Positions 45,965 through 48,568 of a stretch of DNA of 64,000 bases are shown one piece after another; the first letter of the stretch is position 1, and each line of letters starts with the position of its first letter. The notes beneath the pieces were generated by a model. The model worked only from the letters and a program-made list of their open reading frames with translations, was not told the origin of the DNA and did no database searches. Both the position numbers and the translations under genes were made by a program. This stretch comes from Candidatus Aquidulcis sp. (GTDB lineage Bacteria; Chloroflexota; Limnocylindria; Limnocylindrales; Limnocylindraceae), in contig RGCW01000002.1 in NCBI GenBank assembly GCA_009919005.1, positions 4,279 through 68,278 of the forward strand. Reading direction: 5' to 3'.

Positions 45965-48568
45965 ATGAACATGAAAGACATCACCACCGTATCCGCTGAA
46001 TTCGGCGGCCAGACACTTACCATCGAAACTGGTCGATTGGCCCGCCTTGCCGGCGGCGCAGTCACCGTTCGCTACGGCGACACCGTGGTCCTTGGCACGG
46101 CAAACCGCAGCGAGCCACGACCGGGCCTCGACTTCTTCCCCCTCACCATCGAATTCGAAGAGCGCATGTACGCCGCGGGTAAGATCCCGGGCGGCTACAT
46201 CAAGCGTGAAGGGCGAGCCTCTGAGAACGCAACGCTCTCCGCTCGTTTGACTGACCGACCGATTCGCCCTCTCTTTCCAGAGGGGTACAAGGATGATGTT
46301 CAGGTCGTGATCACCGTGCTGAGCGCGGATCAGGAGAACGATCCCGACATCCTTGGAACGCTTGCAGCCTCTGCTGCGCTCACTATCTCCGAGATTCCGT
46401 TCCTCGGCCCTATTGGCGCCGTTCGCGTTGGCATTGTGAATGGGGCGTTCGTGATCAACCCTACCTTTGAGCAGCTCAAGGAGAGCGATCTCGACTTGGT
46501 TGTTTCGGGAACTGTGGATGCGATCATGATGGTTGAGGCTGGTGCAAACCTGATCACCGAAGAGAAGATGGCTGAAGCCATCGAATTCGGCCACAACGCA
46601 ATCAAAGCGTTGGTCACCCTGCAAGAAGAGCTGCGCGCCAAGGTTGGCAAAGAGAAGCGTGTTCCGTACATTGAACCAGGTACCGATAGTGTCCTCGCGT
46701 TTGCTGAGGCGGCGGCAAACGGCGGAACCTTCGTCGTCGTTGATACTGAGACGACTGGTCTGGACCCCAAACTCTCTGATTTGGTTGAGATTGCTGCCGT
46801 CAAGATCAAGGGTGGCAAGATCACGGATCGATGGAGCTCTTTTGTTGACGCCGGAAATGCCATCGTTGGAGCACAGATTCATGGCATCACCAGCAAAGAG
46901 ATCAAGGGAGGGTTGGCGCCGAAGTCGGCGGCCGAAACATTTGCTGAGTTTGCCAAAGGCGCCATCTTGGTCGGTCATAACCTGGGCTTTGATGTCGCAT
47001 TCCTTGACGAGGCGGCTGGCAAGGGTCGCTCGTTTGCCACCGAGCCAGGGAGCTACCTTGATACCTACGTACTCTTTAAAGAGGCGTACCCGGAGAGCGA
47101 ATCATTCAAGCTCAGCGATCTTGCGCGAGTCTATGGAGCCACGACGACACCCAACCATCGGGCAGCTGCGGACGCAGAGGCTACGGCTGAACTCCTTCTT
47201 GTTCTCGCCGGCGAACTTCCTACTCGCCTTGCAACCTTGAAAGAGGGGATTGCTGATTCAATTCGCGCCGCCCGCAGCGGGAAGGGCGACCCGAAGGCGC
47301 TTCTGGAAGCGGCGCGCCGAAAGGCTCGTGTCGGTAGAAATCTCTTCGCATGGATGCATAAAAAGACCGCGCGAAATCTCACAATGAAAGAGGGGATCCG
47401 CCTAGACGGCCGGAAGGTTGATGAGATCCGCCCCATCTCTGTTGAGGTTGGTTTGCTCCCACGAACGCACGGATCAGGTCTCTTTACGCGCGGCGACACG
47501 CAGGCGCTCAGTGTTGCAACCCTCGGGCCGGTAGCTCAGGGCCAGCGCCTCGACACGATCTCGCCAATCACCGAGAAGCGCTATATCCATCACTACAACA
47601 TGCCGCCCTACAGCACGGGCGAAAACAAGCCGATGCGTGGCCCCGGTCGCCGTGAGATCGGGCACGGGGCCCTCGCCGAGCGTGCCCTGGTTCCGGTATT
47701 GCCGTCCATTGAGGAGTTCCCATACGCGATCCGCGTTGTTTCAGAGTGCGTGACGTCAAACGGCTCCACCTCGATGGCATCAACGTGTGGATCCAGCCTT
47801 TCACTACTCGACGCGGGCGTGCCGCTCAAGGCGTCAGTCGCTGGTGCCGCAATGGGACTCATGTCCGAGCCGAACGGTGAGTTCGTGGTCCTTACCGACA
47901 TCCTTGGAAAAGAGGATGCGTTTGGCGATATGGACTTCAAGGTGACAGGTACGCGAACTGGGATCACAGCACTACAAATGGACATTAAAGTCCAGGGGAT
48001 CAACGGGGCGATCATTCGAACGGGATTGAAGGATGCGCTTACTGCCCGACTTTCAATCCTTGACAAGATGGACGCTGTGATTAGCACAGCGCGACCCGAG
48101 CTCTCAGATTTTGCGCCGCGGATCACCACAATCAAGATCAATCCGGAGAAGATCCGTGACATCATTGGTAAGGGTGGAGCGGTAATCCGCAAGCTTCAGG
48201 ATGATTTCCAGGTCAACATCAACGTACAGGACGATGGAACGGTGCAGATCGCGTCTGCCGACCCTGAACGAACCAAAGGTGTGCTTGATGCAATCAACGG
48301 GATCACCAAAGAGGTTGAACTTGGCGCGCTCTACATGGGAAAGGTGACCCGCATCATGGGATTCGGCTGCTTCGTTGAAATCCTGCCTGGAAAAGAGGGC
48401 CTGGTCCGCATTGGTGAGCTCGCGGACTACCGCGTGAACACGGTTGAAGACGAAGTTTCTGTGGGTGATGAGATCATGGTGGTCGTCACGGAGGTTGATC
48501 GACAGGGAAGGGTCAATCTCTCTCGTCGTGCGGCGATGCAGCGACATCGTGCAGCCCCACAGGATTAG
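45965..48568 (+). CDS. pnp: polyribonucleotide nucleotidyltransferase (PNPase) carrying an inserted DEDDh exonuclease domain
   Basis: RNase PH 1, split alpha linker, RNase PH 2 ([18 protein letters not shown]), KH ([12 protein letters not shown]) and S1 ([15 protein letters not shown]) domains. 867 aa. The second ATG (45971) has better spacing from the AGGAG RBS. Confidence 0.95.
   Translation: [867 protein letters not shown]
46727..47209 (+). other. DEDDh (DnaQ/RNase T-like) 3'-5' exonuclease domain embedded in pnp (aa ~255-415)
   Basis: ExoI [11 protein letters not shown], ExoII [14 protein letters not shown] and ExoIII [15 protein letters not shown] occur in order with typical spacing. 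The domain is in frame with PNPase sequence on both sides. Confidence 0.8.

Follow-up and report, generated by a model that had tools for sequence, protein, structure and literature searches.

We show that a PNPase encoded in a 64,000-nucleotide stretch of DNA from Candidatus Aquidulcis sp. (contig RGCW01000002.1; hereafter the window) carries a complete DEDDh 3'-5' exonuclease domain inside its all-alpha domain and keeps two intact catalytic centres in one polypeptide chain, an architecture conserved among its relatives. With moderate confidence we favour a model in which this protein is the housekeeping PNPase of a Limnocylindria-type bacterium, converted by an ancestral domain insertion into a two-nuclease RNA-decay enzyme with its hydrolytic site cooperating with phosphorolysis.

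The pnp gene is one unbroken ORF lacking any stop codon or frameshift at the junctions of the insert (Table 1). An earlier note on this DNA had reported an ORF of 867 aa, longer than ordinary PNPases. The roughly 160 aa of additional length are real, since solved PNPases span 705-784 aa, while the number itself is probably 865 aa: a Shine-Dalgarno GGAG ends at 45964, directly abutting the first ATG, and the nearest homologues, 864-865 aa long, begin at the equivalent of a second ATG at 45971, which is therefore probably the true start. The residue numbers used here, counted from ATG 45965, are probably offset by +2. The locus order truB-ribF-rpsO-pnp-asd-udg-rnj recurs in all related genomes whose sequence extends far enough, and the canonical rpsO-pnp pairing marks the gene as the housekeeping pnp. 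Hairpins within the 68-nt rpsO-pnp intergenic region were not significant (z=-1.64). The neighbours of pnp include RNA-metabolism genes, and the second gene downstream codes for a uracil-DNA glycosylase.

Table 1. Features of the pnp region with their positions in the window, strand and the basis of the assignment
Feature	Position	Strand	Details
rpsO (ribosomal protein S15)	45588..45896	+	immediately upstream of pnp; synteny kept in related genomes
pnp ORF, PNPase with embedded DEDDh domain	45965..48568	+	867 aa from ATG 45965; ORF list, Pfam, NCBIfam
First RNase PH core, aa 1-227	45965..46645	+	RNase_PH + RNase_PH_C; Pfam
All-alpha linker before insert, aa 228-254	46646..46726	+	one helix, aa 241-251; model
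Inserted DEDDh 3'-5' exonuclease, aa 255-418	46727..47218	+	PolC/DinG/DnaQ type; Pfam, NCBIfam, PDB, Foldseek, dN/dS
ExoI motif D260-T-E262	46742..46750	+	invariant in 121/121 and 22/22 sequences
ExoII catalytic D343 in VGHNLGFD	46991..46993	+	invariant in 121/121 and 22/22 sequences
ExoIII motif H398-x4-D403 (NHRAAAD)	47156..47173	+	defines DEDDh subclass; invariant in 121/121 and 22/22 sequences
All-alpha domain after insert, aa 419-476	47219..47392	+	strongly basic, net +10; model
Second RNase PH core, aa 477-715	47393..48109	+	phosphorolytic residues; Pfam, alignment
KH domain, aa 716-780	48110..48304	+	Pfam KH_1 aa 721-777
S1 domain, aa 781-858	48305..48538	+	Pfam S1 aa 784-855

Apart from the insert, the protein shows the PNPase layout, with an all-alpha domain linking two RNase PH cores and with KH and S1 domains at the C-terminus, the same order (PH1-alpha-PH2-KH-S1) as in the canonical enzymes of E. 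coli (Pnp), S. antibioticus (GPSI/PNPase) and C. crescentus (PDB 3GCM, 1E3H, 4AM3, 7OGK), with which it also shares the phosphorolytic residues, the rpsO-pnp synteny and Foldseek target-normalised TM-scores of up to 0.86. Both PNPase equivalog models score far above their cut-offs (TIGR03591, 921.5 bits versus 525; NF008805, 916.1 bits versus 471), the insert dividing either match into two stretches. Pfam places RNase_PH at aa 17-145 and RNase_PH_C at aa 148-211 of the first core, which has a mean identity of 79% over 120 homologues, and reports a second RNase_PH stretch downstream of the RNase_T match, so that the exonuclease match is flanked by RNase_PH matches on both sides. Residues R398, R399, H403 and S437-439 of the E. 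coli enzyme correspond to R562, R563, H567 and S601/T602/S603, and D486, D492 and K494 to D651, D657 and K659; these phosphorolytic residues are invariant in 69 aligned family members. The view that both PH cores, KH and S1 are intact is thereby borne out and extends to the phosphorolytic site.

Sequence and predicted fold confirm the insert as a complete DEDDh (RNase_T/DnaQ-like) domain. Pfam RNase_T (PF00929) matches aa 257-411 with E=1.4e-26 and 94.4 bits (cut-off 24), spanning profile positions 1-164 of 164, and NCBIfam matches, PDB sequence matches and the predicted fold agree with this assignment, which the earlier note had made from motifs. The range it had given, 46727-47209, equals aa 255-415 and is consistent with the domain bounds found here, and D260/E262, D343 and H398/D403 are present exactly where it had placed them, with correct order and spacing of the pentad. 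All five catalytic residues are unchanged in 142/142 sequences having 50-95% identity in this region, and the flanking motif residues T263, T264, G265, H306, G307, F342 and R399 are likewise invariant across the 142 sequences. Because ExoIII carries His398, the insert belongs to the DEDDh and not to the DEDDy class.

The domain of ~164 aa sits between helix 1 (aa 241-251) and helix 2 of the all-alpha domain, a position that distinguishes the enzyme from canonical PNPases. Alignment and model place one helix before the insert and three after it (aa 419-438, 443-454 and 458-476 in the model), supporting the earlier proposal of a domain insertion inside the all-alpha linker rather than a fusion of neighbouring genes. 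The AlphaFold model of insert plus helical domain has a pLDDT of 91.6 and a pTM of 0.88, the insert alone reaching a pLDDT of 83-97 in the models. The ExoIII helix is predicted to run on into the alpha domain as a single helix spanning aa 400-438, and insert and helical domain are modelled as one rigid module. The helices following the insert are strongly basic, in contrast to the acidic ones of E. coli PNPase: aa 419-476 carry a net charge of +10 in the window protein, and aa 440-476 range from +1 to +8 in every family member compared to -6 in the E. coli equivalent. As judged from the sequence, these basic helices are consistent with a nucleic-acid track.

In canonical PNPase, the helical domain lies on the face opposite to KH/S1, lines the pore to the active site and affects both activity and pore access (PMC2723993). 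The insert might accordingly be a catalytically silent structural, RNA-binding or regulatory module, for instance one gating the helical-domain pore, and its predicted rigid coupling to the helical domain would fit such a role. We consider this very unlikely: inactivated DEDD domains normally lose catalytic residues, whereas here the catalytic pentad and the flanking motif residues are invariant throughout the family.

The architecture recurs in 120/120 best database homologues, a list made up wholly of insert-bearing members, and at the truB-ribF-rpsO-pnp locus of at least 21 species-representative genomes, a lower bound because the peptide patterns with which the genomes were scanned came from the window sequence itself. 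All named sources of insert-bearing PNPases are Limnocylindria-type Chloroflexota MAGs. Among the members of the family are soil and groundwater lineages with larger genomes. Junction-spanning matches with 33-49% identity and a weak RNase_T match were considered as divergent or degenerate versions of the insert; alignment revealed them to be frameshifted gene calls with R/P/A-rich out-of-frame runs and not other lineages. The insert is under purifying selection with a dN/dS of 0.04-0.17, comparable to the RNase PH cores. Its GC content (0.54-0.56) is the same as that of the other gene parts and dS is similar across domains; comparing GC by gene part and dS by domain, we found no compositional signature of recent transfer.

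An assembly chimera or sequencing artefact joining a dnaQ-like gene into pnp, a suspicion to which the unusual protein length alone might give rise, has a probability of practically nil. More than 140 independent sequences from ENA, JGI, NCBI and Logan carry the architecture on contigs of up to 1.44 Mb, it is in frame in all the best homologues from these sources and in the species-representative genomes, the junction positions are stable in the alignment of homologues, and selection maintains the insert. The repetition across independent assemblies excludes the chimeric join that the earlier note had named as a possible refutation.

By sequence and fold, the closest kin of the insert are exonucleases of DNA metabolism, i.e. 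the PolC proofreading domain, DinG and DEDD-GIY-YIG proteins. Identity is 32-34% to the PolC exonuclease and 38-42% to DEDD-GIY-YIG proteins of Gaiellaceae/Thermoleophilia, and NCBIfam matches to DinG and PRK07883-type DEDD-GIY-YIG proteins reach E=1e-30 to 1e-37. The best Foldseek matches of the module are the exonucleases of PolC and DinG, DnaQ, epsilon, RNase T and ExoX, all with a probability of 1.00. RNase T gives only a weak, partial sequence match (P. aeruginosa 2f96, E=1.4e-5, query residues 89-173), and the structural likeness to it in the model appears to be that of the generic DEDDh fold. The PDB sequence matches at E<=1e-3 contain no chain of Orn or REXO2, and the best 25 of 31 matched NCBIfam families contain no model for Orn, suggesting that the protein is not an Orn/REXO2 member by sequence, though it may work like Orn. 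Testing for Rrp6/RNase D kinship, no HRDC or DNA_pol_A_exo1 match was found above threshold (PF01612, 16.8-22.9 bits versus 23.6). Of the original label "DnaQ/RNase T-type", the DnaQ-like part holds and the RNase T part does not; we narrow it to PolC/DinG/DnaQ-type because the nearest relatives are DNA exonucleases, not RNase T or Orn.

This kinship counts against a role in RNA decay and is a ground for the idea that the inserted exonuclease acts on DNA or RNA-DNA hybrids, i.e. on ssDNA 3' ends or R-loops during repair or replication stress. Such a function would draw on the ability of some bacterial PNPases to bind and degrade ssDNA and on the DNA-directed ancestry of the insert. PNPase has a role in DNA repair in Bacillus and mycobacteria, and all other hosts found of this DEDDh subtype are DNA enzymes (PolC, UvrD-like helicases, GIY-YIG/BRCT/DinG fusions); the nearby uracil-DNA glycosylase gene points the same way. 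We nevertheless regard this as unlikely, as the host, encoded in the rpsO-pnp locus, is the housekeeping RNA exonuclease and has its RNA-binding KH and S1 domains intact. In addition, DEDDh enzymes often do not distinguish between the sugars, and the sequence does not discriminate between DNA and RNA. The substrate preference of B. subtilis DinG-exo, for ssDNA and for the RNA strand in hybrids (PMC12525004), likewise speaks for DNA or hybrids.

A further idea is that of an embedded domain doubling as an epsilon-like replicative proofreader in a streamlined genome. Many members are labelled "DNA polymerase III epsilon subunit family exonuclease" by JGI, and the dnaQ model TIGR00573 matches weakly; its 59-63.6 bits (the top of the range also being given as ~64) stay below the curated cut-off of 71.5, as do the 61.6-65.3 bits for epsilon (TIGR01406) below 222.7. 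The C-terminal tail of epsilon binds polymerase and clamp, but the insert lacks such a tail and its end runs straight into the PNPase helix in the model. Recruitment to the replisome is implausible for a domain locked into a PNPase ring, and the larger-genome lineages in the family do not fit a streamlining scenario, so that this proposal can hardly be maintained.

Several known systems resemble the two-nuclease PNPase in part. In PolC, the DNA polymerase III alpha of Gram-positive bacteria (PDB 9QPC, 2P1J), the exonuclease within the PHP domain is the closest relative of the insert and is, as here, a DnaQ-like module placed internally in a catalytic host protein. The PolC host is a templated DNA polymerase that the exonuclease proofreads, whereas PNPase is a template-independent phosphorolytic RNA exonuclease/polymerase, for which reason proofreading has no obvious meaning. 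DinG-exo of Bacillus and Staphylococcus (PDB 8ZEF) and the PRK07883-type DEDD-GIY-YIG proteins share the DEDDh subtype, but in them the domain is fused terminally to a helicase acting on DNA or to a GIY-YIG nuclease of DNA repair rather than lying inside an RNA-decay enzyme. The nuclear exosome (Exo-9 PH ring with S1/KH cap) also combines a PH ring with a hydrolytic 3'-5' exonuclease of the DEDD superfamily, Rrp6, and gives short single-stranded tails direct access as an alternative to threading (PMC3838930). Rrp6 is of the DEDDy/RNase D type, has an HRDC domain and, as a subunit of its own, occupies the cap (S1/KH) side of a catalytically dead eukaryotic ring; the window exonuclease is of the DEDDh type, covalently inserted and predicted on the face opposite to KH/S1, in a ring keeping its phosphorolytic residues. 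The resemblance to Rrp6/exosome would be functional only. In the human mitochondrial degradosome (PNPase-SUV3) with REXO2 and in E. coli PNPase with Orn, a DEDDh exonuclease acts downstream of PNPase and removes its products of 4-5 nt; when nanoRNA builds up, it inhibits the degradosome (PMC7261184). Both REXO2 and Orn are enzymes of another DEDDh subfamily that occur as free homodimers, sharing no significant sequence similarity with the insert.

In the two-nuclease RNA-decay model we favour, the ancestral insertion would have given PNPase a second, hydrolytic nuclease, each protomer of a presumed trimeric phosphorolytic ring carrying an active Mg-dependent DEDDh 3'-5' exonuclease. The continuous helix would hold it rigidly on the all-alpha domain, and we infer a position on the ring face opposite to the KH/S1 RNA-entry face, next to the side pore that gives access to the phosphorolytic site. 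From there it could clear the short limit oligonucleotides which PNPase is unable to degrade further and by which it is inhibited, or trim by direct access 3' ends with single-stranded tails too short for the channel; short RNA, short 3' overhangs, ssDNA or R-loops are candidate substrates. Functionally, this would resemble the pairing of Rrp6 with the exosome ring or of REXO2 with mitochondrial PNPase. An NrnA-like DHH-DHHA1 protein is encoded in the same cluster of the window (42676-43743), from which a nanoRNase is probably already present; this weakens the proposal that the insert replaces a missing nanoRNase, and because of it the insert would not be needed merely as a substitute. More tentatively, the enzyme could be a covalent bacterial counterpart of exosome-Rrp6, in which an active phosphorolytic ring channel is combined with three DEDDh sites on the exit/pore face, fed by the remodelled basic helical domain. 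If true, one machine would degrade RNA with and without phosphate, finishing or bypassing what threading cannot, and a natural PNPase would for the first time unite two chemically different exonuclease activities in a single chain.

Few RNA-decay enzymes are as well studied and as conserved as PNPase, whose PH-alpha-PH-KH-S1 plan is, to our knowledge, regarded as universal in bacteria and organelles alike. The two-nuclease design appears to be undescribed, in line with the earlier note, whose author knew of no characterised PNPase of this kind: the structure search with Foldseek found the extra domain in no solved PNPase, and the openly searchable full text, including Limnocylindria genomics papers, makes no mention of it. 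The family has been deposited often in public databases, as "polyribonucleotide nucleotidyltransferase" or under the epsilon-type label, and the former, plain label hides the feature. Limnocylindria (formerly the SL56/Ellin6529 group) are abundant uncultured bacteria of freshwater, soil and groundwater whose RNA metabolism is unexplored. Their PNPase is a lineage-wide variant, maintained by purifying selection, that gained a hydrolytic nuclease domain while keeping the phosphorolytic site, demonstrating that an entire catalytic module can be accommodated in the PNPase helical domain. With this variant, the cooperation between phosphorolytic and hydrolytic 3'-5' decay, the clearance of PNPase limit products and the role of the helical-domain pore can be tested in a natural system, and it may serve as a simple bacterial model, encoded by one gene, of how the eukaryotic exosome combines a ring with a DEDD nuclease.

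The pnp gene of the window encodes a PNPase carrying a DEDDh exonuclease domain between its two RNase PH cores. As the earlier note had claimed, a single uninterrupted reading frame passes through the insert (46727-47209; aa 255-415) and the DEDDh motifs are present exactly as quoted (FVVVD260TE262, D343 and NH398RAAAD403). A DEDD-family profile match is flanked by PNPase domains, with PH1, PH2, KH and S1 all retained in Pfam. The PNPase equivalog TIGR03591 (NCBIfam) scores 921.5 bits against a cut-off of 525, the match being split into two stretches by the insert, and the protein agrees with PNPases and with DEDDh exonucleases in every family feature examined. 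Since solved PNPases comprise 705-784 aa, the unusual length, about 160 aa beyond these, is real. The earlier residue numbering, counted from the ATG at 45965, is kept here but is probably offset by +2, as a second in-frame ATG lies six bases further on (45971). The Shine-Dalgarno GGAG has its last base at 45964 and so abuts the first ATG, and the nearest homologues (864-865 aa) begin where the second one lies, which makes 45971 the probable start and 865 aa the probable length of the product. The 68-nt rpsO-pnp leader (45897-45964) contains two small predicted hairpins, but its stability does not significantly exceed that of shuffled sequence (z=-1.64), and nothing in it points to an autoregulatory RNase III stem of the E. 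coli type. Across all 64 kb of the window there are no tRNA genes and no Rfam matches at gathering thresholds.

Features of the pnp locus and of the encoded PNPase (aa counted from ATG 45965)
Feature	Position	Strand	Basis or remark
DHH + DHHA1 protein, 355 aa	42676-43743	+	directly upstream of truB in the nusA-infB-(DHH)-truB-ribF-rpsO-pnp cluster
pnp ORF	45965-48568	+	867 aa, uninterrupted
RNase_PH	aa 17-145		Pfam
RNase_PH_C	aa 148-211		Pfam
Short helix before insert	aa 241-251		model
DEDDh fold	aa 255-418		model
RNase_T (PF00929, DnaQ-like DEDD family)	aa 257-411		Pfam, E=1.4e-26, 94.4 bits vs gathering score 24, whole profile covered
Continuous long helix	aa 400-438		model; last DEDDh helix (bears D403) running unbroken into all-alpha domain
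Two further helices	aa 443-454, 458-476		model; PH2 starts afterwards
Second RNase_PH stretch	between RNase_T and KH_1		Pfam
KH_1	aa 721-777		Pfam
S1	aa 784-855		Pfam
asd	48648-49697	+	downstream of pnp
UDG-superfamily gene	49522-50358	+	TTG start 49522 in listed ORF
RNase J	50355-52094	+	third gene downstream of pnp, after asd and UDG-superfamily gene

Alignment with E. coli PNPase and AlphaFold models agree on the layout and bear out the proposed position within the helical linker, one helix preceding the insert and helices of the all-alpha domain following it before PH2. When the full-length protein is modelled (mean pLDDT 72), the insert reaches pLDDT 83-94, the low-confidence parts being the FFRR-loop region and S1. 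The module aa 228-478 modelled alone has a mean pLDDT of 91.6 and a pTM of 0.88, suggesting that exonuclease and helical domain form one rigid unit and are not flexibly tethered. The helices after the insert (aa 419-476; 47219-47392) carry a net charge of +10 in the window protein, and aa 440-476 carry +1 to +8 across the family; the E. coli equivalent, the sole insert-free comparator, carries -6 and the window exonuclease domain itself -8. These basic helices beside the exonuclease may constitute a remodelled nucleic-acid-binding surface. Foldseek with the full model returned only canonical PNPases of at most 730 residues (TM up to 0.86 target-normalised, about 0.54 query-normalised), and therefore no solved structure holds the extra domain.

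As to the lineages sharing the insertion, the best 120 matches (95-70% identity) from a search of 5.8 billion proteins all combine PF00929 with PNPase domains (120/120); they derive from ENA, JGI, NCBI and Logan sources with contigs of up to 1.44 Mb, and the names given are Candidatus Limnocylindrus, Candidatus Limnocylindrales/Limnocylindria or Chloroflexota. The 95%-identity cluster contains both Ca. Limnocylindrus and Ca. Aquidulcis MAGs. Scanning one genome per GTDB species revealed at least 21 species genomes with a PNPase matching across both junctions (90-50% identity over aa 228-470), the insert being in frame with pnp in 21/21, and the remaining matches cover the exonuclease core only, at no more than 42% identity. 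Set beside this in-frame recurrence, an assembly chimera as the origin of the insert-bearing pnp is barely credible. Wherever the contig of a related genome is long enough, the order truB-ribF-rpsO-pnp-asd-udg-rnj is as in the window, the pnp-asd-UDG-RNase J part being likewise kept, and the window pnp is therefore the housekeeping rpsO-linked gene and not an accessory paralogue. The listed UDG ORF shares about 175 nt with the end of asd, and since its Pfam match starts no earlier than aa 89, translation probably begins downstream of the listed TTG. Two related MAGs probably carry wrong taxonomic labels from their submitters: L007 (CAMAXG010000001.1, 'Thermoflexus hugenholtzii JAD2') has a pnp locus 94% identical to the window protein with full synteny in common, and L019 (JANMBS010000307.1, 'Thermomicrobiales bacterium') is a 2.3-kb contig with pnp only, 69% identical.

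In a search of 1.84 billion representatives (clusters at 50% identity), P0013 is the sole full-length protein spanning both junctions, all other junction-spanning matches being fragments. Seemingly divergent versions of the insert among these fragments (33-49% identity, weak RNase_T scores) turned out upon alignment to be gene calls containing frameshifts, with R/P/A-rich stretches read out of frame, and therefore the architecture is found in one lineage only within the databases searched. Such public calls of this family are P0126, P0142, P0157, P0178, P0181 and the C-terminus of P0125; by mimicking divergent homologues in clustered databases, they are a trap for estimates of family diversity.

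The catalytic residues D260, E262, D343, H398 and D403 align as proposed and are invariant in 121/121 database and 22/22 species-level sequences. The flanking motif residues T263, T264, G265, H306, G307, F342 and R399 do not vary either. Aligned with the E. coli enzyme, the phosphorolytic residues R398, R399, H403 and S437-439 correspond to R562, R563, H567 and S601/T602/S603, and D486, D492 and K494 to D651, D657 and K659, all invariant throughout the insert-bearing family. The dN/dS of the insert (0.04-0.17, pairwise Nei-Gojobori) lies in a range similar to that of the PH cores (0.01-0.22) and below that of the linker after the insert; compared with the window protein, database homologues average 60% amino-acid identity in the insert, 64% in KH and 79-81% in the PH cores. 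The insert thus changes somewhat faster yet is clearly constrained, and neither GC content nor dS gives a sign of recent acquisition. As judged from sequence, the two catalytic centres keep all their key residues, and purifying selection acts on each. Because the catalytic pentad is invariant, a purely structural role of the insert is decidedly unlikely.

Sequence comparison places the insert nearest to 'DEDD exonuclease domain-containing' proteins of the PRK07883 type (NCBIfam, E=3e-37), followed by the exonuclease domains of PolC (E=4e-35) and DinG (E=1e-30); the closest solved structures are PolC (9qpc, 2p1j), S. aureus DinG (8zef), Cas2-DEDDh and epsilon, and a Foldseek search with the module model ranks them alike. 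In the PDB sequence search RNase T matched weakly and partially, and Orn/REXO2 did not match. Membership in Orn/REXO2, RNase T, Rrp6/RNase D (DEDDy + HRDC) and dnaQ proper was considered and rejected, any likeness of the window PNPase to these being at most functional; that the insert serves as a replicative proofreader is very improbable. The nearest non-PNPase proteins in species-representative genomes are from Gaiellaceae/Thermoleophilia (38-42% identity); in them a DEDDh domain at the N-terminus precedes a GIY-YIG nuclease motif. Elsewhere this subtype is internal, in the PolC PHP domain and the C-terminal domain of UvrD-like helicases, or terminally fused to GIY-YIG, BRCT or DinG, and it is therefore a promiscuous, recurrent insertable or fusable module. 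Examples outside the window are the UvrD-like helicases P0186 and P0204 (RNase_T within UvrD_C at aa 448-603 and 473-629, respectively), a PolC with two RNase_T stretches (P0145) and a protein with three RNase_T stretches, GIY-YIG and UVR (P0152). All hosts seen here are DNA enzymes except PNPase, the sole RNA-decay host. This DNA-enzyme ancestry is one basis of the main rival explanation, in which the insert would act on DNA or R-loops and which we consider rather unlikely; the other is that DinG-exo of B. subtilis prefers ssDNA, and the RNA strand of hybrids, to ssRNA (PMC12525004).

The earlier note knew of no characterised PNPase of this architecture, and our searches agree: queries of openly available full-text literature, with Limnocylindria genomics papers among it, gave no description of a PNPase with an embedded DEDD domain, and such a protein has no PDB entry and no dedicated NCBIfam model among the matches listed. 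The sequences are already public, labelled 'polyribonucleotide nucleotidyltransferase' or 'DNA polymerase III epsilon subunit family exonuclease', and the architecture itself therefore appears unrecognised and uncharacterised. It is a new domain architecture joining two well-known catalytic modules.

With modest confidence we favour a role of the inserted exonuclease in RNA decay. The PNPase helical domain is located on the ring face opposite KH/S1 and lines a pore, which opens another way to the active site and has been proposed for NDP/Pi exchange (PMC2723993). PNPase-SUV3 leaves products of 4-5 nt, which the DEDDh enzyme REXO2 clears, and nanoRNA build-up inhibits the degradosome (PMC7261184). 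The exosome pairs its PH ring with the DEDD nuclease Rrp6, and substrates whose single-stranded ends are short gain direct access with no threading (PMC3838930). The 355-aa DHH-DHHA1 protein of the window, matching best the bifunctional oligoribonuclease/pAp phosphatase NrnA (NCBIfam, E=1.9e-31, under the equivalog cut-off), is a probable candidate for a stand-alone nanoRNase, and its presence weakens the idea of the insert as a mere substitute for a missing one. According to the RNA-decay model, each protomer would carry a hydrolytic 3'-5' exonuclease on the exit/pore face of the ring, which may remove limit oligonucleotides on the spot or trim 3' ends not long enough for threading, and would do so independently of phosphate.
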